A DNA stretch of 41,629 bases, from the NCBI GenBank assembly GCA_051439505.1, contig JBFRWI010000161.1:1-41629 (forward strand), read 5' to 3'. Made by a program: the position numbers and the translations under genes. Shown piece after piece: positions 14,017 to 32,704 of this stretch (within the stretch, counting starts at the first letter, position 1; each line of letters starts with the position of its first letter). The notes beneath the pieces were generated by a model. That model saw only the letters and a program-made list of their open reading frames with translations, searched no databases and was not told the origin of the DNA. The DNA is from Hormoscilla sp. Its GTDB lineage: Bacteria; Cyanobacteriota; Cyanobacteriia; Cyanobacteriales; Desertifilaceae.

Positions 14017-14131
14017 GCTATAGCATTTCTCAAGCTAATGAGGTACAGGCTCGTCGAGCCCCCCAACCCCCCGAGATCGCGAGGGATTTAGGGAGATTAT
14101 GGATGTACCTCACGGTGAAAACCGCTATAGC
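14017..14131. mobile_element. MITE-like inverted-repeat element between two convergent genes
   Basis: GCTATAGC palindrome at both ends, inner arms TGAGGTACA / TGTACCTCA; the right end supplies the stop codon of the minus-strand ORF. Confidence 0.55.
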
Positions 14132-16181: not shown

Positions 16182-16330
16182 AGTTTTCTAATTCATGAAT
16201 TTACCTCTTGAGATCTACAACTTCTTCCTCGTCCGCACCAGTAAAGGATGCCGGACTGGTGCAGAAAGATCTCCGAACTCACGTCGGGTCAGGGTTTGGG
16301 GAGGCGTTGCACCCGAAGTTACTTCCCTTT

Positions 16331-16466
16331 GGGTGCATCCCAGTTTTGCTTCTTGAAAATTGAAAATTGAAAATTGAGCAATTTTGCTATTTTCCATTCT
16401 CCATTCGCAATTGGACATTCGCAATTAGCAGGATTTAATGCCAAAGCGCAAAAGTGGGATGCTCCC
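16331..16466. mobile_element. MITE-like element with 19-bp inverted repeats enclosing STRR heptamers
   Basis: GGGTGCATCCCAGTTTTGC (16331-16349) versus GCAAAAGTGGGATGCTCCC (16448-16466), 17/19; internal TGAAAAT x3. Confidence 0.6.
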
Positions 16467-16482
16467 CTTCCCTTTCCCCATT

Positions 16483-18084
16483 CTACTCCAGATAACCTAG
16501 CATCTGCAACTGCGCGATAATTTTTTGTTTTTCCTCATCGCTAATCTCCTCTACAGACTCGGCACTTGCTTCTTTTTCCACTCCCGTTCCCTCACCCATA
16601 ACAACTGGGTTTGACATGAGATAATTTTCCGTGAAGAAACAATCCGCTACCACCCCTTCTTGAGCTGGCCCGATCGGCAAACCCAGACTGTAGAGTAAGG
16701 TAGCAGTCACATCCACAATATTGCGCCTTTCTGCCTTAAATCCCGACTTGATTCCCGCACCCCCTGCTAAGAAAATACCGTCCGGATGATGAGTGCCAAC
16801 GGGCACTGGACGTTGTTCCACTGCCGGTTGCACGTTATTAATGGAAACAAATCCATAGTCCCGCAGCACTAAAGTCAGGTCCGGCGCTTCTGCCACCGCC
16901 TCCCCAGAATAAATATCTTCCCGCTTGTAAATTCCTTGGAGAATCCTTTCTCCTGTCTCGGGATCTTGGAAACTTTCTAGATCCTCAATCAGGCGATCGC
17001 GGAACTCTTCGTATGCTTCTGGTTTAATCCCGGGGTCTCCAGGATTTCGGGCCACGCGGATCGTGATGCCGTTGCTAGAAGCGGTCCGACAGTAAGCGAG
17101 GGTCTTTTCCCAATCTAGGTTGGCAAACTTGCTAGCTTCCCGCCTTTTTTCCGCTTCACTATTATCGCCTTTTTTCCAGGCCAGATATCCTTTTTCTGCC
17201 AAGAAGGTATTGATGCGAACTACTTCCGTACTCGTCGTAAAGCCGTGATCGGAAGCCATAAATACTTGGGCCTCTGGCCCTGCGAGTTCTACCAACTTCT
17301 CAATATAGCCATCTAACTTGCGGAAATATTCTAACACCAATGCCCGCATCCGCTGCTGCCAAGAAGTAGGATTAGTTCTTACCAATGCCGGATCCAGAAA
17401 GTCCCAAATTTGGTGCTGAAGTTTGTCCGTGCCGTCAAACATCACTGCCATTAAGTCCGGGTTGTCCTCCCGCAGCAGTTTTGAGGCGATCGCGAACCAT
17501 TGTTCGTCTCGGGGGAGATGATATCGCACCCAATTTTCCAGATCCGACTCTGTCATTATTTCTCCAATTTGGTTTTCCCGATCGAAATCCCATGCTAACT
17601 CCTTGGGATTAAAATCGGGAATTTCCTTCAGTCGATCGTACAGATCTGGCGGTGTCGTATTGCGGCGCAGATGTTTCCAGGGAACGAAACCGGGTACCAA
17701 TGATCCCGCTATCTTTGGCGGTGGGGCCGTCATGGGAAAGTTTAAGGCCACAACAGTGCGATTTTGACGACTGGCAATGGTCCAAATTGTTTCTGTCCGG
17801 ATATCTCTGAAATCGTAGAGGGTAAAATATACATCATTTCCCTGTTCTTCCGCCCGCAGAAAATCATAGACACCATGATTTCCCGGACTCCTTCCGGTCA
17901 TCAGCGAACACCAGGCCGGAGGGGTGAGGGGGTTGGGCGTGGACCGCAATAAACTTGCTGTCCCCGTGGATATAAACTGCTTGAGAAATGGCATCGTTAC
18001 CCCTTCCTCTGGCAAGTCGCGAGTTAGTTCGTCTAGTACAGTAAATGTTGCACCATCAAGTCCTATGAATAAAGTCCGGGTCAT
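16483..18084 (-). CDS. Alkaline phosphatase superfamily protein (type I phosphodiesterase/nucleotide pyrophosphatase-like)
   Basis: IGLDGAT, LRSTPNPLTPPAW..LMTG, DKLQH, SDHGF, GTHHPDG, C-terminal LQMLGYLE. Confidence 0.9.
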   Translation of the reverse strand: MTRTLFIGLDGATFTVLDELTRDLPEEGVTMPFLKQFISTGTASLLRSTPNPLTPPAWCSLMTGRSPGNHGVYDFLRAEEQGNDVYFTLYDFRDIRTETIWTIASRQNRTVVALNFPMTAPPPKIAGSLVPGFVPWKHLRRNTTPPDLYDRLKEIPDFNPKELAWDFDRENQIGEIMTESDLENWVRYHLPRDEQWFAIASKLLREDNPDLMAVMFDGTDKLQHQIWDFLDPALVRTNPTSWQQRMRALVLEYFRKLDGYIEKLVELAGPEAQVFMASDHGFTTSTEVVRINTFLAEKGYLAWKKGDNSEAEKRREASKFANLDWEKTLAYCRTASSNGITIRVARNPGDPGIKPEAYEEFRDRLIEDLESFQDPETGERILQGIYKREDIYSGEAVAEAPDLTLVLRDYGFVSINNVQPAVEQRPVPVGTHHPDGIFLAGGAGIKSGFKAERRNIVDVTATLLYSLGLPIGPAQEGVVADCFFTENYLMSNPVVMGEGTGVEKEASAESVEEISDEEKQKIIAQLQMLGYLE

Positions 18085-18359
18085 TTTACCTTCTTCTCCA
18101 CAAATTTTGCTATTTCCTCTACCCCGAGGTCGTCTATATATCGCCCATTTTTCATCAGCAATTCATTAAATCCTAATTTCTGCTGAAAATGCTCTTCTAT
18201 AGCCACAACTAGCTGGATAATGTCAATTGAAACAAATCCCAGGTCTTCTACTATTTTAGTTGTCGGTAAAATTTCAATCTCGTCTATCTCCCAGTCTTGG
18301 GTTATATCTTTAAGTATTTCTATCAGTTCTGACTGAATTTCCCTTTCTGTCATTTGCAT
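18081..18359 (-). CDS. Stand-alone acyl carrier protein
   Basis: Acidic 92 aa; DLGFVSIDIIQLVVAIEEHF (Ppant Ser in a VS rather than DS context); overlaps the next gene by ATGA. Confidence 0.85.
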   Translation of the reverse strand: MQMTEREIQSELIEILKDITQDWEIDEIEILPTTKIVEDLGFVSIDIIQLVVAIEEHFQQKLGFNELLMKNGRYIDDLGVEEIAKFVEKKVK

Positions 18360-18374
18360 TTTTTTATCAGATGT

Positions 18375-18404
18375 CAGTTGTTAGTTGTTAGTTGTTAGTT
18401 GTTA
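18375..18404. repeat. STRR-type 7-bp tandem repeat (AGTTGTT) x4
   Basis: Directly visible. Confidence 0.9.
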
Positions 18405-18516
18405 TATACGATCTGGGCATTACCCACAATTTTTGAACCGATCTACTTTTACGACTATAGATGAACGCGAAACTAATAAACTCAAGTGGCTGTTGGGTTT
18501 CGTGCCCAGACCCAAC

Positions 18517-21500
18517 CTACATGGTTGGCGGCGAGAAGATACCATCCTGAAAGACCGCAGCTGTTACTCGTTCTTGATTAGCTAGAAACTCTTCCATCAA
18601 GTCAAAGTGAGATTGCACGATCGCCAACCGAGTATCCTCTGGCAGCGGCCCAACTGCTGGTGTTGCTACCCCGTTCCTTGGCAATATTTCCCTCTCTGGC
18701 GTGGGGACTGGCATTATTTTACTACCATTGCTGCCATTGTCTGTCGGTACGGCCTCCTGCCCATCGCTGATTTGTTCGGGTACTCTCTTTCCCTCTACTG
18801 TTGACAAGTTTGACTGTAGCTGGGCTTTAATCTCTCGGACAAACTCCGGCTGCAAGCGCATGATCGGCATCTTTAATTCTAACCGATTCCCTTTGGGTTT
18901 TTCTTCCCCTGCCGGGCGATCGCCCAGAGTTAAAAGCTGCAACTCTCGCCCTTTGTAGAAGGTCTCGAAATTCACTGTCGCCCCATTGGCATACAGACAA
19001 CCGATTACATGCTGCAATTGTTCCAGTCCCGATCGCCTTTTGATATTGCTTGCTAAGGCTAATTTATCTCCCTCACGCAATATATCATTGACAAAACCCG
19101 TTAAATTACTGCTCGGACCCACTTCTACAAAGGTTCTAATTCCTCGATCGTATAGGGCCGATATTGCTTCGGTAAACCTTACTTGGCTAAACCATTGCTT
19201 GGCTACTATAATTCTAATTGCTTCTGGATCCTCCGGGAAGTACTGGTTGCTCGTACAACTATATATGCTAGTATGGCCTGGACCTACTTCCATTGTATCA
19301 TAATACTCTTTAAATGCAGCGCTGACTTCTGCAAATAGAGGGGTGTGATAGGCCCGATCGAATGGTAATGGTCGGCAAATGCCCCCCGCCTGTTCTAGCT
19401 GTTTTCCTGCTGCCGCGATCGCCTCTGGTTCCCCAAACACGATTACTTGATTTGGGCAGTTTTCCATTGCCAAATGCAAACCAAATTTAGCAATTACTTC
19501 TTTTACCAAGTCTAGTTCTACCGCCCCTACTGCTAGTTGACTTCCTTTAGGAATCCTATCATCTGCTGTCAATTTTTCATAGATTTGATTGAGGGCAAAA
19601 ATCTTCTCTCCTAAATCCTCTCGGTCTTTTATCTTAATTGTTTCCGAGGCGATTAAGGCTGTATTTTCCCCCGTACTGTGGCCGACCATCACTTCAGCAT
19701 CTATCCCCAATTGCCGTAAAAGTTCGTACAATGCCATATTAGCAGTAAACACTGCTTCCGAACCCCAGTCCATCTGGAATAGCTGTTCGGTGGCCCGATC
19801 GCGCTGTGCTGCTGTCAGACCCGTTGGCGGCGGAAATATTATGCTACTGGGGAGAATCGATCGCCGTTCCCCAAATATTCTATCCAGGAAGTCAAACCAC
19901 GATCGCACCTGGGGGAAGTACAGGCACAGGTCTGCTAGCATATTCTGGTACTGGGAACCTTCCCCGGGAAATAGAAATGCGGTTTTTTCCCGCCTCGCTA
20001 ACTCGCTATTGGCGGCGTAGTAAATGCCATTGCGGGTTTTTAGCTGCCTGCATTCCACCTGGGCGAGTTTCTCCAGGACTTTATCCAGTTTAGCTTGTAA
20101 GTCCGGGATATCTTTAGCGACGATCGCCATCCGTTCCCCACCCGTTATGTCCCTTGACAAAGTATAAGCCAGATCCGCCAGATTTACTTGCCCATTTGCT
20201 TGCAGAAAACCTCGCACTCTTTTCAGTTTATCGATCAGTTCCTCTCGCAATGCCGCCCCAAACACGCATAGTTCTGTCGGCCACTGATTCTGGGCGCTGT
20301 TTCCCGGAACCCCTATTTGCACCACCGGGGGAGATTTTTCCTTGCTACCCCGATATTCTTCTAGCACTACGTGGGCATTAATGCCCCCAAACCCAAAAGC
20401 ATTCACTCCCGCCCGTCTGGGAATTTCCCGACGCCTGTGAATCCAGGGCCGGGTTTGATTGTTAATATAAAAGCAAGACTCTTCCATGTGCAACTCCGGG
20501 TTGACCCGATCGCACAGAGTGGGTGGCAATACTTTATGGTAAAGTGCTAAGGCTGTTTTGATCGTGCTCGCCGCCCCGGCGGCCAAAAGACAGTGACCGA
20601 TCTCCGATTTTACCGATCCTAGAGCACATGTAGGTAGCATTTCCTCTCGCTGACCAAATACTGTATTCAGAGCCTGCATTTCCGTGCGATCGCCTAAAGG
20701 TATCCCCGTACCGTGAGCTTCTATGAGGCTGACTGTTTTTGGGTCTACCCCGCTTTGGGCATAAGCTCTCTCCAATGCTAACACTTCCCCTTCTAAGCGG
20801 GGGGCCAGCAATCCCAAGGCTTTGCCATCACTGGAAATTCCCACTCCTTTGATTACCGCATAAATGCGATCGCCATCTGCTGCGGCATCTGACAGTCGTT
20901 TGAGCACCAATATCCCTAAACCTTCTCCTAGCAGGGTGCCATTACCCTCCGCAGCGAAGGGTCTGATTTCCGAACGTGACAATGCTCCCAGCTGACAGAA
21001 CCCCATAGTCGTTTGTGGCGATATTGTCGCATTTACTCCTCCTGTGAGCATCATATCGCAGCGACCGCTGGTCAGTTCTTTAATCGCTAAATCCATGGCG
21101 ATCAAAGAAGAGCCACATGCCCCATCAATCACATAGTTCGGTCCCTTTAGATCCAAGCGATTCGCAATTCTACCCGTGATAATATTTGGTGCCAATCCCG
21201 CTATTGTCTCTACCGAAATATCGGGCACACTCGTCTTCAGGTTGTTCTCGATTTTTCCTATTATCTGATCGTCTATTCCTGGCACCATTTCCCCAAGCAA
21301 TTCCAGAGTTTGGTCCAAAACCATCCCCTGTTGCATCACTGTCCCCCACCCTCTGTTCAATGGCAGTGACCCACCTAATATTATCCCTGTTTTTTCTCTA
21401 TTAAAATGTCGTACAATGTAGTCAGCATCTGCCAGAGCGTCCCTAGCTAACTTCAGGGCTATAAAGTGAACTGGATCGCTTCCCTCTATGGACTTTGGCA

Positions 21501-21735
21501 TAATCCCGAATTCCGTCGGTTCAAATTCCACCAAATCGCCAATAAATCCGCCTTTGCGGGTATAGATGCGGTTTGGAGCCGTTGATTTCGGGTCGTAATA
21601 TGGTGTAGCCCAAGCATCAGGGGCATCCTGCACCCCATTAACCTTGTTGATAATATTCTGCCAGTATGTTTGCAAGTCTTTCGAGCCAGCAAACATAGCT
21701 GACATACCGACGATCGCGATATCCTGGCTAGTCAT
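18517..21735 (-). CDS. Type I PKS subunit KS-AT (Pfa-like)
   Basis: KS DGACGSSL / EAHGTG / IGHCLLAAG; AT FPGEGSQY, GHSTGE, RAYHT; overlaps the upstream gene stop by ATGA. Confidence 0.92.
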   Translation of the reverse strand: MTSQDIAIVGMSAMFAGSKDLQTYWQNIINKVNGVQDAPDAWATPYYDPKSTAPNRIYTRKGGFIGDLVEFEPTEFGIMPKSIEGSDPVHFIALKLARDALADADYIVRHFNREKTGIILGGSLPLNRGWGTVMQQGMVLDQTLELLGEMVPGIDDQIIGKIENNLKTSVPDISVETIAGLAPNIITGRIANRLDLKGPNYVIDGACGSSLIAMDLAIKELTSGRCDMMLTGGVNATISPQTTMGFCQLGALSRSEIRPFAAEGNGTLLGEGLGILVLKRLSDAAADGDRIYAVIKGVGISSDGKALGLLAPRLEGEVLALERAYAQSGVDPKTVSLIEAHGTGIPLGDRTEMQALNTVFGQREEMLPTCALGSVKSEIGHCLLAAGAASTIKTALALYHKVLPPTLCDRVNPELHMEESCFYINNQTRPWIHRRREIPRRAGVNAFGFGGINAHVVLEEYRGSKEKSPPVVQIGVPGNSAQNQWPTELCVFGAALREELIDKLKRVRGFLQANGQVNLADLAYTLSRDITGGERMAIVAKDIPDLQAKLDKVLEKLAQVECRQLKTRNGIYYAANSELARREKTAFLFPGEGSQYQNMLADLCLYFPQVRSWFDFLDRIFGERRSILPSSIIFPPPTGLTAAQRDRATEQLFQMDWGSEAVFTANMALYELLRQLGIDAEVMVGHSTGENTALIASETIKIKDREDLGEKIFALNQIYEKLTADDRIPKGSQLAVGAVELDLVKEVIAKFGLHLAMENCPNQVIVFGEPEAIAAAGKQLEQAGGICRPLPFDRAYHTPLFAEVSAAFKEYYDTMEVGPGHTSIYSCTSNQYFPEDPEAIRIIVAKQWFSQVRFTEAISALYDRGIRTFVEVGPSSNLTGFVNDILREGDKLALASNIKRRSGLEQLQHVIGCLYANGATVNFETFYKGRELQLLTLGDRPAGEEKPKGNRLELKMPIMRLQPEFVREIKAQLQSNLSTVEGKRVPEQISDGQEAVPTDNGSNGSKIMPVPTPEREILPRNGVATPAVGPLPEDTRLAIVQSHFDLMEEFLANQERVTAAVFQDGIFSPPTM

Positions 21736-24284
21736 AAAGCAATTGCCAAACGATTGAGTTTGGGACTACTGGTGCTTTCAATATCCTGCATATAGAAATG
21801 TACCATGCCGTTTTCATCGTAGAAAATGGCATCGTAGGTGATGCTGTGGTCACTCACCTGACTCACCCTAAACGCCAGTTGCAGGGCCTTGCTTGGCAAC
21901 CGGGAACTCCTGTATCGGGTAACGGCACCCACTCGTGAAGGCAAAGAACTCGTGTCCCGCTGCACCCTGGTCCACACCATTGCCATTTGGGGCCCTGTAT
22001 CCATTAGTCCGGGGTCGAACAACCATTTGCTTGTCATACCCATATCCTGACTCGGCAACCATTCTTGGGGGTCACTTGCTTTTACCACCGCATCTATTCC
22101 CCGTTCGTTCAAGCGATCGATCGCCGTCACCAGATGGAAGCTAGGTCCGTGAAAGAGATAGTCTTGATAGGCTATCTTTGGTTCTATCTGCATTCCCGAA
22201 CTGAGAGAGACTGTTCGCCCATCTCTATACTCCCCTATTTCTGGTTCTAGCACAATTTCTGCCCGATAAAAGGGAATCTTGCCCACGGGGTCGATCATTT
22301 CTGCTGTCACTGTCAAGCAGGAAGCATCAGCATGGGTGGCAGCACGAGCTTTAAAAATAACATTACGACCTGCTTGAGTTTCTAGCACTAACCCCCGCAG
22401 TACCCGCAAGTCCCGCACCCCTGTCACTGTCCAATCTGGCCAACCTGCTTGCACTACCTCAGCTAGCCATTCTAGGGCCACTGTCGCTGGTACAACTGGT
22501 TTGCCATCCAGTCGGTGATCTCCTAGATAGGGGTCCCGATCGAGAGAAAAGGTATGTTCTAGGATAATAGCACCATCGGGCTGAATTTGGGGAGTGCGTT
22601 CCCCCAGGAATGGCAATTGTTGCTTGGCCTTCCCCGTTGCCGTATTGCCATTTTGAATTCTACCATCCCAGGGACCATCCCCGGCAATGATTTCCATTTC
22701 CCCTTTTTTACCATAGAGCATTTCGTCGATAAAAAATTGCCGACCTGCTTCCAGGGGAATGGGAATGACTCCTTGTTCTCGGAATTTCCGTTTTACTTCT
22801 GCCGATGCCATACCCGTAGTGTCCCAGGGTCCCCAGTTGATGGCTACTACCCGCGTTTTTTCCCACTTGCTGTCCAACTGCCAGGCCAGGCGGTTTACTA
22901 CTTCATTGGCGGCGGCGTAGTCTGACTGACCCCTATTTCCAAATGTTCCGGCTATTGAGGTGAAGAACACTAGCAATTTTAATGTTTCTGGCCTTACATG
23001 CTGGGCTAGGATAAAGGCACTGTCTGCTTTGGTGTCGAATACCCGATCGAACGATGCTGGAGTTTTGTCCGGTATCAGCTTGTCTTCGATGATGCCCGCA
23101 CCGTGAATCACTGCATCCAGGCGATCGTACCTTTCATATATATCATTTATCAGTAACCCAAATTCCGATTCATTTCTGACATCCGCTGCTCTATATTCTA
23201 CCCGCGCACCCGCTTTTCGGAAGCTTTCTAGGTTGCGCAGGATCGCCCGATCGCGCCTTATCCCCCATATTTGACGTTCTATTTGCACTGGCGTGCTTGA
23301 CAACCCTTGTTTGCGGGCTTGTTGCAGCAGGACTTTTCGCAAACTCGCCACATCTTTTATTCCCGCTGTTTCTGCATTTTCCTTTCTTGGGTAGGGCGAG
23401 CGGCCCACCACGATCATAGTTATACCATAGGCTGCCAAATCTTTAGCAATTTCGGCAGTAATTCCCCTGGCACCACCGGTTACTAATATCACCCAATCGG
23501 CAGATGGACTCAACTGTATCTCTTTTTCCGTTCGGGGGGCAGGTACTGTATCAAAAACGGTACGCTTTCCTTGGGGATACCCTATTTCTACCCTACCCCA
23601 ATTCTCCTTTACCCCTGTCTGGTGGGCCGTGCCCACCCTACGTTGGAAATCTTCTGGTAACATTTTTCCCTCTGTCTGGTGGGCCGTGCCCACCCTACCT
23701 GGGAAATCTCCTGGTAACATTAATTCTTGACAAATATGCTTGGCTATGGTATTTGCATCCAATTTATTGTCGAAATCTATCGCTTTTGCATCTACACCAG
23801 GTCTCTCAGCCACCAGGGTTTTCAGTAACCCATTACTGCTACCACCCGTAGGTAAACCCGGACCACAATCACCCCGACGTCCAAAATGACCGCCTAACAA
23901 AGAAGCTGCCAGGACTTTTGTCGGACTAGATAACTGCAACAACCCGAACAAACTTTTTACCTGGCCTGAAGTATGCGATCGCCAATCTGATAGCTTTTCT
24001 GGCATCATCATTGGGGATAGGGGTGCCAAATGGACAATTCCATTTACCGGTCCTCTACTGTTAACTATCTCCGCCAATTTTTCGGGCTGTTGCAGTTCTG
24101 CCGATCTGATTATAACTGTTTGCGCCCCCTTTTGATCCAAGGTTGACGCTACTACAGCCGCCACTCCCATGCTATCTTCTGTAATCAGAAACAAACCTGC
24201 GGGCGATATCAATTCTACGTCAGGAAAAGGTTCTTCTCGCCCACAGATTAGGTAACGCCCAATGCCTTTGACTGGGACTGATAC
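21732..24284 (-). CDS. KR-DH portion of a Pfa-like PKS. The ORF track starts at TTG 24212, but the frame is open upstream and likely entered by a -1 frameshift at 24284
   Basis: KR VTGGARGIT, HGAGIIED, GQSDYAAAN, INWGPW; DH DHRLDGKPVVP, LFHGPSF, DPGLMD; in-frame upstream extension VSVPVKGIGRYLICGREEPFPDVE. Confidence 0.88.
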   Translation of the reverse strand, partial: VSVPVKGIGRYLICGREEPFPDVELISPAGLFLITEDSMGVAAVVASTLDQKGAQTVIIRSAELQQPEKLAEIVNSRGPVNGIVHLAPLSPMMMPEKLSDWRSHTSGQVKSLFGLLQLSSPTKVLAASLLGGHFGRRGDCGPGLPTGGSSNGLLKTLVAERPGVDAKAIDFDNKLDANTIAKHICQELMLPGDFPGRVGTAHQTEGKMLPEDFQRRVGTAHQTGVKENWGRVEIGYPQGKRTVFDTVPAPRTEKEIQLSPSADWVILVTGGARGITAEIAKDLAAYGITMIVVGRSPYPRKENAETAGIKDVASLRKVLLQQARKQGLSSTPVQIERQIWGIRRDRAILRNLESFRKAGARVEYRAADVRNESEFGLLINDIYERYDRLDAVIHGAGIIEDKLIPDKTPASFDRVFDTKADSAFILAQHVRPETLKLLVFFTSIAGTFGNRGQSDYAAANEVVNRLAWQLDSKWEKTRVVAINWGPWDTTGMASAEVKRKFREQGVIPIPLEAGRQFFIDEMLYGKKGEMEIIAGDGPWDGRIQNGNTATGKAKQQLPFLGERTPQIQPDGAIILEHTFSLDRDPYLGDHRLDGKPVVPATVALEWLAEVVQAGWPDWTVTGVRDLRVLRGLVLETQAGRNVIFKARAATHADASCLTVTAEMIDPVGKIPFYRAEIVLEPEIGEYRDGRTVSLSSGMQIEPKIAYQDYLFHGPSFHLVTAIDRLNERGIDAVVKASDPQEWLPSQDMGMTSKWLFDPGLMDTGPQMAMVWTRVQRDTSSLPSRVGAVTRYRSSRLPSKALQLAFRVSQVSDHSITYDAIFYDENGMVHFYMQDIESTSSPKLNRLAIAL

Positions 24285-27200
24285 TTTCCCAGGCCATTTT
24301 CCTCCCCCTTGGTAATTTCTGACTGGGAATTTTCGCCCTTTTCTAATAAATGTGCGATTAACCCGTTGAGTGTCTTGACTCGGGTCAATGTTTCCATCTG
24401 TGCTTGAATATTCCCCGCTGATGCTTCAGGCAGATTTTTCCCTAGGGCACCCAATATTTCTACCCGCTTGATCGAATCTATCCCCAGTTCCGCTTCTAAG
24501 TCCAGGTCTAATCCTAGCATCTCTGGCGGATATCCCGTGCGATCGCTTACTATCTTCAGTAGCATTGCCCTCAGACTTTCCTTATCTGGCATTGCTGATT
24601 GGCGATCGCCGATCGGCGGGGATGGACTTTTCCCATTTTCTAACACCCGTGCGATCAATCCATTCAGAGTTTTTACCCGAGTCAGAGTCTCCATTTCTGC
24701 TTGCATACTTTTCGACAAGGCGATGGGCAGATTTTTTCCTAATGCCCCCAATATTTCTACCCGCTTGATCGAATCTATCCCCAATTCCGCTTCTAAGTCT
24801 TGGTCTAACCCTAGCATCTCTTGGGGATATCCCGTGCGATCGCTTACTATCTTCAGCAGCATTTCCGTCAGACTTTCCCTATCTGGCATTGCTGTTGGGT
24901 TTCGTTCGGAGACCCAACCTACTTGCCCTGGGTTTCCTTCCTCTACCCAACCTACTTGATGCTTGGTTCCATTCCCCGTTTCCTGGAGTCCGTTCGGGGG
25001 CGTAACAATTTGCTGTACTGGAGTTTGTCTGACAATTTGCGGTACCCGACTCTGTGCCTCCGGTTCCCCCCTTCTGTAAGGGGGGTTAGGGGGGATCTGA
25101 CTCTGGGGTTCTGCTAACATTGGCGCTGCTGCTGCGTCCAGTCCCCTGTCAGGGGGGTTAGGGGGGATCCCGCCACTTAGAAACTGCTGCATCACCGACT
25201 CCTGTACCTTCAGGAATTGACGCATTGTCTCTTGATAAGCTTGGTACGCAATTACAGCCGCATCTGGGGACACCTGATAGTTGCTACTTGTTGGTTGCTG
25301 GTTCGATCTTGACATTCTCGATTGCGTATTGACTTGCTTATGCTGTTGCGATCGCGACATTATTCTCGATTTTGGCAACGCTTTAGCGCTTTGTGCTGCC
25401 CTTTCGACCTGGGACTGACGTTCCCGTTCTATGGGAAGTTCCGCCCGTTCGTGAGAAGACTTCGTTTCCAGGGTGAGAGGTGGCCTTTTGCCCATGTAAC
25501 CAACATCAACACCGACAGGTCGTGCCGTTCCGCCATTTAACAGCCAGGTTGTGGGGGATAATTTAGGTTTCCCGGTTAATTCCACTAGCTTGGATAAGTC
25601 TAGCTGCTTCACCTGCCGCCCCGCAAACAAGCCTGTCGGATCGATATTAACACGATTGCTCGTCACCAACTTCCCTACAGCTAACAATAAACCCTTCAGT
25701 CCGCCCCCTTGACCGTCCAGGGATACAACTGTATGGTCTTTGTCTGCCAGTATTTGACCCACCAGGGATTTCAGGATACTTTTCGGACCTACTTCTACGA
25801 ACACCCGCGCCCCCGCAGCATACATGGCCTCGATCTGATTGACAAATTGCACGCTGTTGAGGGCGTGGGCTGATAATCTCTTGGAGATGGCTTCTGGTTC
25901 TGAGGAGTAGATACCATCTCCATTTGAGTATACGGGAATTTGCGGAGATTCGAGCTGGCAGTCGGCGATCGCCTCTGACAGGGGCCCTGTCGCCGACTCC
26001 ACCAAGGACGAATGGAAAGCACCCGCAACTGGTAGCATCCGGGCCTGAATGCCTTTACTCGTCAGACTGCTAACTACCTCTTCTACTTGGGTTCTTTCGC
26101 CGGAAATTACTGACTGGAGTGGGGCATTATGGTTAGCAAGCACAACCTGTGGAAAGCTGCTGAGATATTCTAGCAAGTCACGGGCGCTCATTTGCACTGC
26201 TGCCATTGCCCCATCGGCAACTTCGCAAGCGGAGGCCATCACTCTACCTCTGGTTTCCGATAGGCGGAGAAACTCTTTTGCTGGTAACACCCCTGCTGCA
26301 TAGAGAGCGGTATATTCTCCATAGCTATGTCCCCCTACCATATCTGCTTTCAGTCCCAGTTGGGCGATAATCTCCAAAAAGCCCATTGATATGGTCCCAA
26401 TGGCAGGTTGCGCCACATGAGTGTCTGTCAGTTGCTGTTTGTTGCTGAGTTTCTCGGTTTCCGAATAGGCGCTGGCCGGATAGATGAATTGACTGAGTAA
26501 TTTCGGCAATTTACCTGCGGTCTCCCGGTCTGCTAATTCCAACGCTTGGCGCATCTGTGGGAAATACAATGCCACCTCTCGTGCCATCTCTGGATATTGG
26601 GCCCCTTGACCGGGAAATAGAAAGGCTATTTTATCCTGCCTTTCTTGAGTACCGGTAACTTCCTGCAACTGGATGTTTAATGGTAGGGGTTCTCCACTAT
26701 TTCCCTCTAGATGTTTTAAGGCTAACTCTAGACTTGCAGTTAATTCTACTAAATCTTTTACACATATCGTTAGGTTCGTAGTAAGCGCTTTAGCGCTTGC
26801 CTTCCCGCTTGCATAGGTGTAGGCTAAATCTGCCAGGCGCGGTTCTGCACCCGCAAGCAAAGTTTCTAGGAGAAACCGCACTTCCTTAATTAAAGCTTCC
26901 CGGTTTTCCCCCTGCAATATAATCAGTTCCCAAGGCCAGTTCTCGGCACCCAGTACCGGACTCTGCCAATCATTGTATTCTTCGAGTGTTGCATGGAAGT
27001 TGGTGCCCCCAAACCCAAAGGCACTTACTCCTCCACGTCTCGGTCTCGAACCCAACCAGGGATGGGCCTCTTTGAGGAGATAAACTGGACTTTCTGGAGA
27101 AGCGATCGCATCGATAGGCTGTTCTACATTAGTATGGGGTGGTAATACTTTATGGTACAGGGACAGGGCCATTTTCACTAACGCTGCCACTCCTGCCGTA

Positions 27201-30200
27201 CTCTTGGTATGACCGATCGTCGTCTTTACTGACCCGATCGCGCAAGACTTTTGTCCTGCATCTGTATTCCGTAAAGTTTCAGTAATGGTCTCTAGTTCTG
27301 CCCGATCGCCTGCCACCGTTCCGGTGCCGTGGGCCTCATATAATCCTAAAGTATTGGGTGAGAATCCTGCCTTATTATAGGCCCGTTGCAGGGCCCGCCT
27401 TTGACCTGCTGGTCGGGGGGCTGTCATACTCAGTCCCTTGCCATCGCTGGAACCTGCTACTGCTTTGATGACTGCGTAGATGCGATCGCCATCTCGTTGG
27501 GCATCTGCCAGTCGCTTCAGCACCACTATCGCTATGCCTTCACTAATAACAATACCATCTGCGTTTTTATCGAAGCTGCGGGCTACACCTTGGGGAGATA
27601 GGGCCTGAGTTTTGCTAAAACAAAAATAAGACCAAGGAGTTTGCATCCCATCTACTCCCCCAGCAATTACCATATTACTGCGACCACTCTCTAACTCTTG
27701 CACTGCCAAATCTATTGCTGCTAGGGATCCTGCACAAGCTGCATCTACTGTAAAATTTGACCCGCCTAGATCTAATTTATTCGCCACTCTCCCTGCGATC
27801 ACGTTCAGCAGCGTCCCGGGGAATGATTCTTCCGTCCATTCGGGCAATCTTTCCCATACTTGGGATGATGTTTTTTCCACAAACAGAGGCATGGTTGCAC
27901 GAGTGGTGTATTGTTGACCTAGATCTCCCATGCCCCCGCCCGCACCCAAGATTACCGATGTCTTTTCCCGAACGCTGCGCGAAAAATCTAACTCGGTTCC
28001 CCCCTTGTTAAGGGGGGTTAGGGGGGATCCGGTTCCCCCCTTGTTAAGGGGGGTTAGGGGGGATCCCTCAAACAACCCCGCATCTACCAAGGCCCGGCGC
28101 ACTGCTTCTAGGGTTAATAATTGTAATGGTTCGATGGATTTCATCGATTTGGGCGGGATGCCAAAACTAATGGGGTCAAAGGGTACATCATCTATAAAGC
28201 CACCCCATTTACTATATACCTTATCTCTCGCATTCCGGTCTGGGTCATAATATATCCGCCAATCCCACCTATTCGCCGGTATTTCGGTAATTGCATTTAC
28301 CTTTTCGATAATGTTCTGCCAGAATGTTTCGGGATCTTGTGCTTTGGGAAGCAAGGTACTGATGCCGATAATAGCGATATCCGATGGAGGACTAAAGTCC
28401 TCACTACGAACCTTTTGAGGACTGAAGTCCTCACTACGAACTTTCGCTAACAGATCCTTACTTCCTTGGGAAACTTCCTCATGCAACTGCTGCACCGTCA
28501 ATACCCGATCGCGCATAGTTGCCACCTGCCCGATCATGTACATCCCCTCAGCAATTTGTTTTTCGGAGTCCACAGTCACCATCTCACCAGCAGCATCTCT
28601 AGTCAACCCCTTAGAAGCGATCCGCAGGCGTCCCAAGGTCAAGTCTTCTAATACGCGACTTATTTCATCTTTCCCCCGTCCCTCTGCCATCATCTGGCGG
28701 CGGGTCTGGTAAAATTCCCCGGCGAAAGGGGTAACGGCGCAGCGACTGGCATGACCGGGTCCCGTTTCCAAGTTAATAGTACGGGTACAGGTCAATGCTT
28801 GTGCTTGGAAACCCTTGACTATGGCCCCGCTGGATACCGCTTCTTCCGTGAATAAATAAGCACTTCCCATCAGTACCCCAATTTTCATGCCTCGTTCTGC
28901 CAGGGGGGCGGCCATTGCACTTACCATAGCAGCCGATCGGGCGTCATGAATCCCCCCAGCAAACAGCACATTTATCTGTGACTGTTCATCTGATGCTACT
29001 CCCTCTGGTACTGATGCTAACAGGGTAGAGATCGTGCTTTCCCACAGCATGAAGCTGCTGAGGGGACCGACGTGACCGCCGCATTCCCGCCCTTCAAATA
29101 CAAATTTTCTCGCCCCCTGTTCCAGGAACATTTCTAGCAGTTTTGGCACCGGTACGTGGATGTACGTAGCAATTCCCAGAGATTCCAACTGGGCCGCTTG
29201 ATCCGGACGCCCCCCCGCTATTAAAGCAAAGGGCGGTCTAATTTCTGCGATTATTTTTAGCTGTTCCTCACGCAATTCTTGGGGTACAAATCCCAGTATG
29301 CCAACTCCCCAAGGGCGATCGCCCATTTTCTCCTGCGCCTCTGTCAATAGCGATCGCACTTGCGGACCCCCCATGAGGGCCAATGCTAACAATGGTAATC
29401 CCCCAGCTTGGGATACGGCATCTGCAAATTCTGCCTTATCGCTAACCCTGGTCATCGGACCTTGGACGATCGGATATTTCGTGCCGTGAGTAACTGCCAA
29501 GGGGGCATTTTCTCCCAGGGGCTGCAACTTTTGGGCAATTTCAATCTGTTCTCTACTCCCATTGAGTAATGCTTGCACGCATCTGCCTGTAGTTTTGTAG
29601 CGATCGCGATACCCTGCTGCCAACCCGATCGCCTGTCCCACTGGCCATGCCAACATTCCTGGCGAGTCCCAACCCACCAATCTTGATGCCTTTTCCCTCC
29701 AGTCCTGGGGATTTTCTAATCCTAACCTTTCTGCCAACTCCTGGAGATTTTCTATCGCCTCAAACCCCGGACGAGACAACACCCGACAACTGGCATTGAG
29801 TCTTTCTCCAATGGTAATTGCCTCTTGACCGTTCAGGTTAGCCAGATGCTTTTGCCATGACTCTGGCATTGGTGATTCCGGCATCAACCACAATTGGTCG
29901 TCTAATACTATACCAGATGCGCCCGCCCCCCGACAGGCTGCCGCCGTATGGATGCCGATGCCACCTTGCACATATATGGGGAGTGATGTTTTTTCTCTCA
30001 GTTTCTGTAGGAGAATATAAGCTGAGTCTTCACCCACCCAGCCCCCACTTTCGTGACCTTTTGCTATTATACCATCTATTATATCTTCCCTTATTACCGA
30101 TGCCTCAACTGCATCGGTAATTTCTATTAATATTTTTCTCCCTTCCCTTACCAGGGCTTTTATATCTCCTATTTCTCTAACTTCGCTGATAATTAAATAA

Positions 30201-30451
30201 TGTACCCGATCGCCCAATCTTTCCAATATTTGATAGTCATCATTGATTTGGTCCCCGCGCAACCGCAACCCCACTGCCTCAGTCTGATTTACCAACTCTA
30301 GCAATTTCTCTATATTTGCGATCGACCGGTCTCGATCGTGACAAAACTCACCATCTAGGATACCCACACCTCCTGCCCTGGTTGTCGCCACGGCAATGCC
30401 CGGATGAGACATACTTATCGGACTGATAGAAAAGCATTCAAATGAATTCAT
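24248..30451 (-). CDS. Iterative type I PKS/secondary lipid synthase: two FabK/nitronate-monooxygenase-like (ER) domains, KS, AT, ACP, ACP
   Basis: ER-like IAKGHESGG / QGGIG and QGPMTRVSD / EGRECGGH / AGGIHD; KS DAACAGSL, EAHGTGT, IGHTKS; AT GQGAQ, GHSYGE, GAFHS; two PfaA-type ACPs LEAELGIDSIKRVEILG. Confidence 0.95.
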   Translation of the reverse strand: MNSFECFSISPISMSHPGIAVATTRAGGVGILDGEFCHDRDRSIANIEKLLELVNQTEAVGLRLRGDQINDDYQILERLGDRVHYLIISEVREIGDIKALVREGRKILIEITDAVEASVIREDIIDGIIAKGHESGGWVGEDSAYILLQKLREKTSLPIYVQGGIGIHTAAACRGAGASGIVLDDQLWLMPESPMPESWQKHLANLNGQEAITIGERLNASCRVLSRPGFEAIENLQELAERLGLENPQDWREKASRLVGWDSPGMLAWPVGQAIGLAAGYRDRYKTTGRCVQALLNGSREQIEIAQKLQPLGENAPLAVTHGTKYPIVQGPMTRVSDKAEFADAVSQAGGLPLLALALMGGPQVRSLLTEAQEKMGDRPWGVGILGFVPQELREEQLKIIAEIRPPFALIAGGRPDQAAQLESLGIATYIHVPVPKLLEMFLEQGARKFVFEGRECGGHVGPLSSFMLWESTISTLLASVPEGVASDEQSQINVLFAGGIHDARSAAMVSAMAAPLAERGMKIGVLMGSAYLFTEEAVSSGAIVKGFQAQALTCTRTINLETGPGHASRCAVTPFAGEFYQTRRQMMAEGRGKDEISRVLEDLTLGRLRIASKGLTRDAAGEMVTVDSEKQIAEGMYMIGQVATMRDRVLTVQQLHEEVSQGSKDLLAKVRSEDFSPQKVRSEDFSPPSDIAIIGISTLLPKAQDPETFWQNIIEKVNAITEIPANRWDWRIYYDPDRNARDKVYSKWGGFIDDVPFDPISFGIPPKSMKSIEPLQLLTLEAVRRALVDAGLFEGSPLTPLNKGGTGSPLTPLNKGGTELDFSRSVREKTSVILGAGGGMGDLGQQYTTRATMPLFVEKTSSQVWERLPEWTEESFPGTLLNVIAGRVANKLDLGGSNFTVDAACAGSLAAIDLAVQELESGRSNMVIAGGVDGMQTPWSYFCFSKTQALSPQGVARSFDKNADGIVISEGIAIVVLKRLADAQRDGDRIYAVIKAVAGSSDGKGLSMTAPRPAGQRRALQRAYNKAGFSPNTLGLYEAHGTGTVAGDRAELETITETLRNTDAGQKSCAIGSVKTTIGHTKSTAGVAALVKMALSLYHKVLPPHTNVEQPIDAIASPESPVYLLKEAHPWLGSRPRRGGVSAFGFGGTNFHATLEEYNDWQSPVLGAENWPWELIILQGENREALIKEVRFLLETLLAGAEPRLADLAYTYASGKASAKALTTNLTICVKDLVELTASLELALKHLEGNSGEPLPLNIQLQEVTGTQERQDKIAFLFPGQGAQYPEMAREVALYFPQMRQALELADRETAGKLPKLLSQFIYPASAYSETEKLSNKQQLTDTHVAQPAIGTISMGFLEIIAQLGLKADMVGGHSYGEYTALYAAGVLPAKEFLRLSETRGRVMASACEVADGAMAAVQMSARDLLEYLSSFPQVVLANHNAPLQSVISGERTQVEEVVSSLTSKGIQARMLPVAGAFHSSLVESATGPLSEAIADCQLESPQIPVYSNGDGIYSSEPEAISKRLSAHALNSVQFVNQIEAMYAAGARVFVEVGPKSILKSLVGQILADKDHTVVSLDGQGGGLKGLLLAVGKLVTSNRVNIDPTGLFAGRQVKQLDLSKLVELTGKPKLSPTTWLLNGGTARPVGVDVGYMGKRPPLTLETKSSHERAELPIERERQSQVERAAQSAKALPKSRIMSRSQQHKQVNTQSRMSRSNQQPTSSNYQVSPDAAVIAYQAYQETMRQFLKVQESVMQQFLSGGIPPNPPDRGLDAAAAPMLAEPQSQIPPNPPYRRGEPEAQSRVPQIVRQTPVQQIVTPPNGLQETGNGTKHQVGWVEEGNPGQVGWVSERNPTAMPDRESLTEMLLKIVSDRTGYPQEMLGLDQDLEAELGIDSIKRVEILGALGKNLPIALSKSMQAEMETLTRVKTLNGLIARVLENGKSPSPPIGDRQSAMPDKESLRAMLLKIVSDRTGYPPEMLGLDLDLEAELGIDSIKRVEILGALGKNLPEASAGNIQAQMETLTRVKTLNGLIAHLLEKGENSQSEITKGEENGLGKYQSQSKALGVT
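24284..24308 (-). other. Candidate programmed -1 ribosomal frameshift signal: internal SD GGGGGAGG, 10-nt spacer, G_GGA_AAG slippery heptamer
   Basis: Minus strand reads AAG GGG GAG GAA AAT GGC CTG GGA AAG TAT; heptamer at 24290-24284, SD at 24308-24301. Confidence 0.75.
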
Positions 30452-30781
30452 GGGGTAACTTTCTCCTCTGTAGTATCTTCGGATTCCTCTCTTTCTTCCC
30501 TGGCTTTCCCCAGATTACCATATTACCATGCTAACCTTTACACTTGCTATAACCGTTAGAGTAGCCATTGACTACATTCTCCCCCTTTTCCATTTCGGAA
30601 AATATTCCATCTTTTTTCCCGGTCATTTCCTCTCTTCCTTGTCACCTCCCAATGGCGATCGGCTATTTCGGTGCTTGTCTATATAATATTCCCAATTGCC
30701 TTGACATTCTCCCACTCCCTCACTTTCCCACAAATGTTAATTAATTATCTGGAAGGTATAGCTTGGTGGGCCGTGCCCACC

Positions 30782-31606
30782 CTACGGGCATTTTCCTTCC
30801 GCGAATGGTACTTCAAAGCATTTTTCGTGCATTACTGGACCATGGCCAAAATAGCCTGATTCTCCGAACAACTCTCCGTGATCTGCGGTAATAATTACGT
30901 GAGTATTGGCGGGACATTTGCTGAATAATTCTCCCACGAGTCCGTCTACATATTCAACACATTTGATTTGCTGTTGATGGAGACGCTGCATTTCCTCTGG
31001 GTCAAAAAATTTTTTTTCCTCCTCTGGCTTTTCCCCAACCAGTAATTCATCCATCTGCTTAAAGACCCCATGGACTCCCGAAATGTGAGGCATATCCTCC
31101 CCCGTTAGCATATAAGGATAATGGGTTTCGCCCAAATTCAGGAAATAAAATCTGGGGGTCTCGTCGGGAAACTCAATTTCGGATACCATCGTGGCAAAAT
31201 CATTATGGTTGGCCATTAATACGTAGTCATCAAAATATTTATTGATGCTCGTAAACTGGTTCAGCACCGGTAGAGACACTCGCGCGATCGTCCGATATCC
31301 CAAATCTTTGAGCACCTTGGGGAGAGACAGTTGGGGCACAAAAGTCTTGAAGGACAAATTCTCAATTCCCAGGCGATCGACCCAAAGTGCGAATTCCTGC
31401 TTGTAGACCTCAGAGGCAAAGACCCCGCGCGGACTGGTATGGGGAATCATGCCCATCAGCATAGCATAATGGGAAGGGGATGTCCAAGAAGCATAGCTGT
31501 AGCGTAGTTCCGCCTTGCCGATGCCATCCATATTGGGGGTAGATGCCGCCGCAAAGCTGTCATAGCGACAGCTATCCATAATGATATAGACGAGATGATT
31601 TGGCAT
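30782..31606 (-). CDS. Sulfatase-like hydrolase/transferase (alkaline phosphatase superfamily); start reassigned to MPNHLV at 31606
   Basis: YIIMDSCRYD, ASWTSPSH, ETHYPY, YVDG, TADHGE, GHG, EVP. Confidence 0.85.
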   Translation of the reverse strand: MPNHLVYIIMDSCRYDSFAAASTPNMDGIGKAELRYSYASWTSPSHYAMLMGMIPHTSPRGVFASEVYKQEFALWVDRLGIENLSFKTFVPQLSLPKVLKDLGYRTIARVSLPVLNQFTSINKYFDDYVLMANHNDFATMVSEIEFPDETPRFYFLNLGETHYPYMLTGEDMPHISGVHGVFKQMDELLVGEKPEEEKKFFDPEEMQRLHQQQIKCVEYVDGLVGELFSKCPANTHVIITADHGELFGESGYFGHGPVMHEKCFEVPFAEGKCP

Positions 31607-31663
31607 AGTTTGTAAGGTGGGCACCGCCCACCACGGACGATTTGGCCTCTGCTGGGGAACCGG

Positions 31664-32704
31664 CTATTTACTGACCGATCGCTCCTGACGGCGGGCCTGT
31701 CTATTTTCACGCCTGCGAGTTTGAGCTGCAGTCAGTTGTTCTTGGGCCTCTGCTTGGTAGGAAGCGACGACTTCGGTCCAGCGTTCTTCATCTTCGGACT
31801 CGATCTCTTCCAGGTCCATCAGATCCTCTGGTATTTCTGTAGACTCTGAAGCTAACAGCGCTGCTGCTTGATACTCTTCCGCTGCTTCCTGCAACAACCC
31901 TTGTCGCTGGTAGATGTCCCCCCAGAGTTGATGGATCTTGGGTGCCAACTGCTTATTGCTGCGAGGCACCTGCCGGAGAGTTTCCATCGCCTCTTGCAGC
32001 TCGTTATTTTCGATCAAGGCTTGCACTAAGCCCATTTTAGTCCTGGGCGAGGCATCTGGCTTGAGGTCGATCGCTTCGGAGAAAGCTGCTTGGGCCCCCT
32101 GGTAGTCTTGTTGTCGCAGATAGATGCGCCCCAACCGTTGACTCACCCGGGCCGTCGGGCCACCAGCCATATTTTGAGTCTTTTGGAGTTCAGCTACTGC
32201 AGCGTCTAGCTTATCTTGGGCTTGATATATTTGGGATACTAGCAAGCGAGCCGTGATGCGCTGGGGGTCTAAGCGCAGGGCCTGACGTAACTGTTCTAGG
32301 GCCGCCTCATACTTTTTTTCTCGGATCAGCGCCTGAGCCATGCCCTGATAGGCTGGGATAAACTGGGGGTCGATATCCAAAGCTGCCTGAAATTCCGCTT
32401 TGGCCAGTTCCAACTCCCTCTGTCTGAGATAGACCTTTCCGGCAGCGTTGGGGGCCTGAGTTCTCAGAGGATCCAGTTTCTTCACCGCCTGATAATGGGC
32501 CAGGGCTTCATCGTAACGCTGCTGCCGGACTAGCATATTACCTGCGCCCATATGGGCCTGTTTTGAGTTAGGATTATTTTGCAGAACCGCTTCAAATTCC
32601 GCTAACGCCTCGTCAAAGCGCTTTTCCTTGGCCAGGGCTAAAGCCAGCTTAGTCTGTTCCCGGTCGTTTGTGCCTACTTTCTTTACCTTGGGGGTGAATG
32701 TCAT
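31664..32704 (-). CDS. Tetratricopeptide repeat protein
   Basis: About 7-8 consecutive 34-aa TPR units (e.g. AHMGAGNMLVRQQRYDEALAHYQAVKKLDP). Confidence 0.92.
   Translation of the reverse strand: MTFTPKVKKVGTNDREQTKLALALAKEKRFDEALAEFEAVLQNNPNSKQAHMGAGNMLVRQQRYDEALAHYQAVKKLDPLRTQAPNAAGKVYLRQRELELAKAEFQAALDIDPQFIPAYQGMAQALIREKKYEAALEQLRQALRLDPQRITARLLVSQIYQAQDKLDAAVAELQKTQNMAGGPTARVSQRLGRIYLRQQDYQGAQAAFSEAIDLKPDASPRTKMGLVQALIENNELQEAMETLRQVPRSNKQLAPKIHQLWGDIYQRQGLLQEAAEEYQAAALLASESTEIPEDLMDLEEIESEDEERWTEVVASYQAEAQEQLTAAQTRRRENRQARRQERSVSK

Follow-up and report, generated by a model that had tools for sequence, protein, structure and literature searches.

A conserved G_GGA_AAG heptamer marks a probable programmed −1 ribosomal frameshift site inside a PfaA-like megasynthase of Hormoscilla sp.

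The DNA considered here is a stretch of 41,629 nt from Hormoscilla sp. (contig JBFRWI010000161.1), referred to below as the window, and the element in question lies within a PfaA-like lipid/polyketide megasynthase encoded on its minus strand, the coding sequence of which changes frame at the boundary between the ACP and KR domains. This boundary very probably harbours a programmed −1 ribosomal frameshift site of the dnaX type. The zero frame, open reading frame (ORF) A, encodes an ER-like domain, KS, AT and two ACPs, with KR and DH following in the −1 frame. Judged from its conservation, the recoding signal between them is real, and would most probably yield a 2067 aa synthase from unshifted ribosomes as well as a 2906 aa synthase from those that shift. 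The positions of these elements, and of the neighbouring ORF C, are collected in Table 1.

Table 1. Features of the synthase locus and its ACP/KR junction (positions in the window)
Feature	Position	Strand	Basis
ORF A (zero frame), 2067 aa: ER-like (NMO)-KS-AT-2 × ACP	24248..30451	−	ORF list, Pfam
KR-DH frame (−1), 850 codons after the heptamer: KR (structural and catalytic subdomains) and polyketide synthase (PKS)-type DH	21732..24290	−	Pfam, TIGR02813
ORF C, 1072 aa: KS-AT and unmatched tail; ATG overlaps the KR-DH stop (ATGA)	18517..21735	−	ORF list, Pfam
Candidate slippery heptamer G_GGA_AAG, Gly-Lys codons of the LGK motif	24284..24290	−	Sequence; 25/25 distinct loci identical
Shine–Dalgarno (SD)-like GGGGGAGG, candidate 5′ stimulator, ending 10 nt before the heptamer	24301..24308	−	Sequence
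Zero-frame stop TAA, 11 sense codons past the heptamer, embedded in the −1-frame codons of RY(L/V/I)(I/M)	24248..24250	−	Sequence
CGT TAC (Arg-Tyr), invariant in relatives; −1 frame only; upstream of every canonical start	24252..24257	−	Alignment, start lists
First canonical −1-frame start, TTG, 26 codons past the heptamer	24210..24212	−	ORF list
Hairpin CCCAGT-caaaggc-ATTGGG, 7 nt past the heptamer; neither conserved nor significant	24258..24276	−	RNAfold, RNAalifold

The end of ORF A reads, on the minus strand, AAG GGG GAG GAA AAT GGC CTG GGA AAG TAT ... TAA, in which G_GGA_AAG constitutes an X_XXY_YYZ heptamer in the zero-frame phase. A sequence-only reading of this DNA had proposed a −1 frameshift at this point, and the elements that it named are all present as described: the heptamer in its correct phase, the SD-like sequence with its 10 nt spacer, the zero-frame stop 11 codons further on, and a KR-DH frame that is open from 24425 and possesses no ATG, GTG or TTG until the TTG at 24212. 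This TTG had been described as lacking an obvious ribosome-binding site, and no SD-like core is visible within the 26 nt that precede it; the predicted product sizes (2067 aa unshifted; 2056 + 850 = 2906 aa shifted) likewise follow from the coordinates. Only the proposed 3′ hairpin divides, as it can indeed be drawn, but a role for it as stimulator finds no support, since it is not conserved and the folding energy of the 70 nt past the heptamer is unexceptional when compared with shuffles (RNAfold, z = +0.25).

With regard to the accuracy of the junction itself, Logan contigs from three runs (X1, X2 and X4; one study) span 24229–24456 with 0 differences and no indel, in agreement with the sequence as it had first been read. 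These runs may include the source sample, such that they rule out an assembler slip, with their independence being incomplete. The sole RNA run listed, a metatranscriptome, contained a fraction of 0.04 of the sampled words. Taken by itself, the heptamer carries little weight: ORF A contains 19 in-phase X_XXY_YYZ heptamers compared with 11.9 ± 3.6 in codon shuffles, two of them within the overlap of the two frames, and a single in-phase heptamer here is within chance. The case rests instead on conservation amongst relatives.

Two samples of relatives were assembled. When 401 genomes, sampled evenly across the same order, were searched at the protein level, a homologue came up in 17, including this genome; one of these (G389) begins inside KR at a contig end and was left out, so that the junction is readable in 16. 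Nine of the 16 are split, their KR-DH being in the −1 frame, and seven are fused in a single frame of 2501–2994 aa, whilst all 16 display (C/T)TG GGA AAG in slippery phase after the last ACP, where it encodes an LGK motif. A wider scan using one genome per species gave 599 pattern hits and 475 confirmed relatives, from which the best 80 were kept. It added loci from Chroococcus, Aliterella, Symplocastrum, Allocoleopsis, a Coleofasciculaceae metagenome-assembled genome (MAG), Fischerella PCC 7414 and PCC 9431, Pelatocladus, Synechococcus Tobar12-5m-g, Phormidesmis and two unclassified MAGs. Following the merging of loci with identical junction translations (L058 = G324, L061 = G248, L060 = G299, L066 = G007, L071 = G351), 25 distinct loci remain when this window is counted, nearly all of them cyanobacterial, of which 17 are split and 8 fused. 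The split is shared by records titled as strains rather than MAGs, namely the two Fischerella and the Synechococcus listed above. A DNA search of 41 relatives produced matches confined to the repeated ACP segments, and was thus uninformative on the junction.

The comparison that the sequence-only reading had called for comes out in favour of frameshifting, as the split loci break at the LGK-encoding GGGAAAG in the −1 phase in 17 of 17 distinct cases, with an SD-like core upstream, and the eight other distinct homologues are fused in frame. Conservation at this site is seen at the level of the DNA. When anchored on the heptamer, positions −4, −3, −1 and 0 to +6 (GC.TGGGAAAG) are identical in all 25 distinct loci, with glycine being GGA and lysine AAG without exception. 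Within the adjacent ACP, positions invariant for Gly, Leu or Lys served as a control and draw on 2–6 codons across these 25 loci (2–4 for Gly and Lys alone), the commonest codon accounting for a share of 0.28–0.87. Given the amino acids and local codon usage, the summed log10 P for the heptamer is −37.8 when the 25 loci are treated as independent. The codon before Leu-Gly-Lys, which occupies 24291–24296 together with the Leu codon in the window, is always NGC (AGC in 13 loci, GGC in 8, CGC in 3 and TGC in 1), encoding Ser, Gly, Arg or Cys with its last two bases fixed, and so points to a constraint on nucleotides rather than amino acids; this fixed NGC may reflect an E-site or context effect on shifting. 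An SD core lies 7–14 nt upstream of the heptamer in 23 of the 25 loci, where 1.17 would be expected on the basis of coding positions in the same phase, and GAGG occupies −14 to −11 in 19–22 of them. Since the loci are kin, probabilities based on independence (for codons, the SD core, the coding signature and the C_CCT_TTT bias described below) overstate significance, and this counts against too literal a reading of them; the contrast with the ACP control columns does not depend on formal probabilities, and the heptamer is conserved in DNA beyond what the amino acids need. A +1-frame ATG following the SD core (24297–24295, opening a 25-codon frame) was also considered as a gene and rejected, as the ATG exists only where the codon before Leu-Gly-Lys is GGC, in 8 of the 25 loci.

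The change of frame can be localized closely. KR-DH lies in the −1 frame in all 17 split loci, of which five have a −1-frame stop directly before CCT GGG AAA G. On the other side, the zero frame ends at +40 nt in 11 of the 17, and at its earliest 10 nt after the heptamer start (G371). With stops thus present in both frames across loci, the shift is confined to approximately 13 nt around the heptamer. Eleven to twelve codons beyond it, an Arg and a Tyr (R12, Y13) are invariant in a 16-sequence alignment, and in 16 of 17 split loci no canonical start precedes this pair, the first one coming at or after codon +11; the exception is again G371, with one ATG 14 codons before the heptamer. An AlphaFold2 model based on the same alignment (mean predicted local distance difference test score, pLDDT, of 75.9) places residues 13–19 in a β-strand, within a block of pLDDT 78–88, and resembles PKS ketoreductases such as Lsd14 and DEBS KR1. 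According to this model, initiation at the TTG at 24212 would delete this strand.

Substitution patterns change at the same point. When 15 gap-free split loci (105 pairs) are compared over the nine linker codons past the heptamer, 143 synonymous and 708 non-synonymous differences are counted in the −1 frame, with a mean BLOSUM score of +0.68, compared with 75 and 758 and a mean of −0.19 for the zero frame. Upstream of the heptamer it is the zero frame that scores better, and the coding signature therefore switches at the heptamer. The downstream −1 ORF is thus without its own initiation signal, and is conserved as coding sequence from the shift site on.

The eight fused loci keep the heptamer and SD core as in split loci, which argues that the site is older than the split. 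In six of the eight, the −1 frame closes one codon after a slip, and in the remaining two, which are of Desertifilum type, the −1 stop is found on a second, upstream copy of the heptamer. The tandem arrangement of these two (L066 and L029) is an observation in its own right: the LGK heptamers are 24 nt apart (CLGKSEVNGLGK), each is preceded by an SD-like core, and the −1 stop is immediate at the first. On the sequence evidence, the split form appears to be a dnaX-like flip of polarity, with the window representing the reversed form in which the long product would require the shift.

The steps of the proposed mechanism follow those of dnaX. A ribosome translating the ER-KS-AT-ACP2 portion would hold GGA in its P site and AAG in its A site, whilst the internal GGAGG, 10 nt upstream, would pair with the anti-SD of that same ribosome. 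In a fraction of cases both tRNAs would re-pair one base back, on GGG AAA, and the −1 frame would be read through KR-DH to give the 2906 aa ER-KS-AT-ACP2-KR-DH protein; the remaining ribosomes would terminate 11 codons later, releasing the 2067 aa form without KR-DH. Between them, the two isoforms could determine how much KS/ACP the assembled synthase contains relative to KR/DH.

The likeness to E. coli dnaX (A_AAA_AAG, internal SD, 3′ stem–loop) extends to an X_XXA_AAG heptamer with an SD-like core upstream, to two predicted products that share an N-terminal part and differ in their C-terminal domains, as tau and gamma do, and to the fused relatives, where the −1 frame stops one codon past the shift as it does for gamma. 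In dnaX approximately 50 % of ribosomes shift and meet a stop one codon later, the roles of the two frames are reversed in some bacteria, and a single nucleotide change can flip these roles when efficiency is near 50 % (PMC5009743); both polarities within one gene family are therefore a further point in common. Differences from dnaX are that the gene here encodes a multidomain lipid/polyketide synthase and not a subunit of the clamp loader, that the heptamer is G_GGA_AAG, that a conserved 3′ stem–loop was not found, that the host bin has a tRNA-Lys(CUU), and that the products here are predicted from sequence. A second chromosomal comparison is copA/CopA(Z) of E. coli, where an X_XXA_AAG-type −1 shift gives a truncated, useful N-terminal product (PMC5009743); there the shift gives a small chaperone domain, with only that one polarity known, whereas here the site lies at a domain boundary of a megasynthase and both polarities occur. 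Both G_GG.A_AA.G, which is listed amongst known, efficient motifs and is one of the three most efficient −1 motifs in E. coli, and C_CC.U_UU.U, which falls in the high-efficiency class of that organism, have been characterized (PMC4066793). The synthase site differs from phage lambda G/GT in having a conserved SD core and in belonging to a chromosomal, enzymatic gene. Lambda G/GT uses the identical heptamer, G_GGA_AAG, to make its long product by the shift; it is not known to use an SD stimulator, and its shift frequency amounts to a few percent.

Several points weigh against programmed frameshifting of this kind in the window. Slippage itself, its efficiency and the use of both isoforms are matters that we infer from sequence patterns. 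Across the 17 split loci RNAalifold returned 0 consensus pairs past the heptamer, pseudoknots not being searched for, and individual foldings of the 70 nt are similarly unremarkable, with z between −1.7 and +1.7 in 16 of 17. A stem–loop or pseudoknot placed 5–9 nt downstream is common in −1 shifting, though not obligatory. In five loci (L054, which is also G025, L066, L078, L036 and L037) a GCGC...GCGC hairpin was noted approximately 25–50 nt past the heptamer, over the RY.MQA codons, where its two arms are the Arg codon of RY and the Ala/Arg codons that follow Met, taking the form CCCCCGC...GCGGGGG in L078; as a conserved 3′ element this hairpin was set aside, as it was not recovered as a consensus structure. 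The bin encodes one tRNA-Lys(CUU) beside one tRNA-Lys(UUU) (Aragorn). Tsuchihashi and Brown (1992) reportedly traced the high slipperiness of AAG in E. coli in part to the absence of a CUU tRNA; with this tRNA in the bin, efficiency may be lower than in E. coli, with shifting still possible. In the G000 bin the same program also calls a tRNA-Phe with an AAA anticodon in addition to the usual one with GAA, together with one tRNA that it leaves unassigned. No 3′ end of a 16S rRNA was found in the bin, and SD/anti-SD pairing is accordingly putative. Furthermore, 11 of the 17 split loci have an ATG at the conserved Met of RY.M, a codon that gene callers would take for a start, and in seven of them it overlaps the zero-frame stop (TAATG/TGATG), by which reinitiation could also give a free KR-DH protein there. 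That such a free subunit is viable in the PfaA-like family is indicated by L085, a Spartobacteria MAG, in which two cleanly separate genes meet at this boundary (approximately 2285–2290), the start of one overlapping the stop of the other as GTGA, and the heptamer is absent. Finally, a tree of the N-terminal 330 aa of KR (37 rows, quick method) contains seven changes between split and fused in its best form, with well-supported branches forcing only one, and is too poorly resolved for transitions to be counted.

In one alternative the window holds two ordinary adjacent genes, with KR-DH made only as a free protein, by reinitiation or coupling near the zero-frame stop, and the heptamer conserved for some other reason; in this window the start would be either a non-canonical codon of the ATC/CTA region or the TTG at 24212. 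Besides the stop–start overlaps and the coupled genes of L085, published ‘split pfaA’ cluster types without recoding (PMC3098273) speak for it. The window and four other split loci (L058, L061, L065 and L069) are, however, without an ATG at the Met position, and as this Met is conserved in fused relatives too, it is seen to be an ancestral residue rather than a dedicated start. The invariant RY and its predicted strand upstream of any start (G371 excepted), together with a −1 coding signature that begins directly after the heptamer, are likewise at odds with separate genes, and the frozen heptamer in 25 of 25 loci, the SD core and the −1 stop in fused relatives would all go unexplained. We therefore regard the two-gene account as unlikely. 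Slightly less likely still is that the SD-like core and heptamer form a pause or drop-off signal at the ACP/KR boundary, serving co-translational folding or phosphopantetheinylation, with no useful frameshift and with the split tolerated in some other way. Internal SD-like sequences can pause ribosomes, and the element sits exactly in the interdomain linker; yet a pause needs neither an in-phase X_XXY_YYZ, nor a −1 stop one codon on, nor three clade-specific slippery sequences, and it leaves 17 start-less −1 KR-DH frames without explanation.

Two further accounts are very improbable, to much the same degree. That the break reflects a mistake in sequencing or assembly, or else a pseudogene recently inactivated by a frameshift, gains some credence from the fragmented assembly (232 contigs), as single-base indels are common in such data; against this stand the agreement of the three-run contigs without any indel, the 16 other distinct loci, some titled as strains, that share the −1 arrangement at the same heptamer, and a KR-DH frame that is intact over 850 codons and has a coding signature. 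Slippage by RNA polymerase rather than the ribosome could equally restore the frame in some transcripts, and is suggested by runs of A7–A9 at the same boundary in Hgl-like relatives, transcriptional slippage being known on runs of 9 A (PMC5009743). The longest homopolymers here are GGG and AAA, however, far under the run length reported for polymerase slippage, and an X_XXY_YYZ phase with an SD core at 10 nt is characteristic of ribosomal shifting. Whilst A-runs leave the choice between polymerase and ribosome ambiguous, a non-homopolymeric heptamer with an SD core therefore indicates the ribosome.

Programmed ribosomal frameshifting being the preferred account for the window, it is of note that the same boundary carries other candidate slippery sequences beyond this clade. 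Amongst the best 80 of the 475 confirmed relatives, 14 have GGGAAAG, 26 have a PF[DE] motif, 32 have neither (including Nevskia-type loci and L067 of Cyanaurora) and eight are without an ACP. PF[DE] occupies the equivalent linker position and is written C CCT TTT in 26 of 26 loci, with the −1 frame reading Pro-Phe-stop; the GC content of these loci is 0.56–0.76, and CCT accounts for 1–22 % of Pro codons in the 22 that have more than 300 codons of usage data. When L080 and L134, which also contain C CCT TTT, are included, an SD core is found upstream in 20 of 28 loci compared with 2.06 expected. C CCT TTT is thus a second candidate frameshift site, where a shift would give the truncated form. 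Its carriers (L076, L080, L081, L084, L086, L087, L092, L097, L098, L103, L104, L106, L107, L109, L110, L117, L120, L121, L124, L126, L127, L130–L135 and L137) are high-GC PfaA-like genes of Proteobacteria, Thermomicrobia and Bryobacteraceae. Runs of A7–A10 are found at the ACP/KR boundary of the Hgl-like cyanobacterial homologues L020, L021, L024, L025 and L027 (28–38 % identity), and also in L070 and L074. L020 and L024 are split, with the −1 frame open, and the fused loci L021, L025 and L027 reach a −1 stop within 2–3 codons of the last Lys of the A-run; on this pattern, junctions of the hglE/hglF type may be recoded as well.

A broader proposition can be drawn from these clades, to which we give serious but tentative consideration, leaning marginally against it when it is taken as a whole. 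According to this, the ACP/KR boundary of PfaA-like megasynthases would be an ancient recoding point across phyla, with clade-specific slippery sequences (G_GGA_AAG for the present cyanobacterial clade, C_CCU_UUU for many Proteobacteria and A-runs for Hgl-like and further clades), mostly with an SD-like core ahead of them, and with flips of polarity such that the shift makes the long form or the short form by lineage. Both isoforms would be working subunits, serving the synthase as tau and gamma serve the clamp loader. Their ratio might be tunable via the balance of tRNA-Lys(UUU) and tRNA-Lys(CUU) or via temperature, and would set KR-DH capacity per KS-ACP unit, and hence the hydroxyl/keto pattern or the lipid yield.

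Assignment of the locus to the PfaA-like family derives from Pfam and from NCBIfam model TIGR02813 (PfaA), which is the best NCBIfam model for both frames. In ORF A, Pfam recognizes NMO at residues 320–660, ketoacyl-synt, Acyl_transf_1 and two PP-binding domains, and TIGR02813 scores 911.7 bits over model positions 9–889; the KR-DH frame scores 273.5 bits over positions 1915–2580 of 2582. As the two frames match separate parts of one model, they represent two halves of one PfaA-like protein, although with the halves scored apart neither value attains the curated cut-off of 1010.1 bits. The domain order, KS-AT-ACPn-KR-DH, broken at ACP/KR, fits a PfaA-like ‘secondary lipid’ synthase, and is shared with PfaA of polyunsaturated fatty acid (PUFA) and ‘secondary lipid’ synthases and with hglE/hglF. 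Sub-threshold scores aside, the locus differs from PfaA in its N-terminally fused ER-like domain. The position of the break is that of published pfaA1/pfaA2 (PMC3098273), which the literature treats as two genes (Shulse and Allen, PMC3098273), whereas here it has the appearance of recoding. Ahead of the complete ER-like domain, residues 1–330 of ORF A (29462–30451, minus strand) contain a second, partial NMO match (residues 102–234, E = 4.6e-9), which may be a degenerate tandem ER.

With regard to the surrounding genes, the C-terminal 194 residues of ORF C (18520–19101, minus strand) have no Pfam match even at E = 1, with approximately 170 aa of the protein matching no family. No PfaC-like KS-CLF with a FabA-type DH was found amongst the eight neighbouring ORFs scanned (14125–32704), in which the sole other synthase gene is this KS-AT, making a PUFA an unlikely product of the locus as judged from its gene content. 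Downstream of the synthase genes (14125–18084, minus strand) are a type I phosphodiesterase/nucleotide pyrophosphatase, a 285 aa ORF that matches no family and an RTX-repeat protein whose C-terminal part gives a serralysin-like match, whilst a sulfatase-like ORF and a TPR protein lie upstream (30782–32704). A scan of 18000–31000 for promoters and terminators gave counts close to shuffle expectation, with none at the ACP/KR junction.

Programmed −1 frameshifting is known from few chromosomal genes of bacteria, with dnaX, copA and csoS2 as examples (PMC5009743). A literature search over main texts returned no report of frameshifting in PfaA, Hgl, PKS or fatty-acid synthase genes, and look-ups of terms in PMC3711429, PMC5009743, PMC3098273 and PMC11804610 likewise gave none for PfaA, Hgl or PKS. 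As far as the search extends, therefore, the mechanism is of a known kind, and its use in the PfaA-like enzyme family is undescribed. Together, the G_GGA_AAG and C_CCU_UUU variants settle what the poly-A variants leave open, namely that it is likely the ribosome, and not RNA polymerase, that slips at the ACP/KR boundary. If frameshifting at this site is real, annotations that treat ‘KS-AT-ACP’ and ‘KR-DH’ as two genes, or as a frameshifted pseudogene, would be wrong for the whole clade, and heterologous expression of such clusters would depend on the frameshifting efficiency of the host. The stoichiometry of the megasynthase would then be a variable controlled by recoding.

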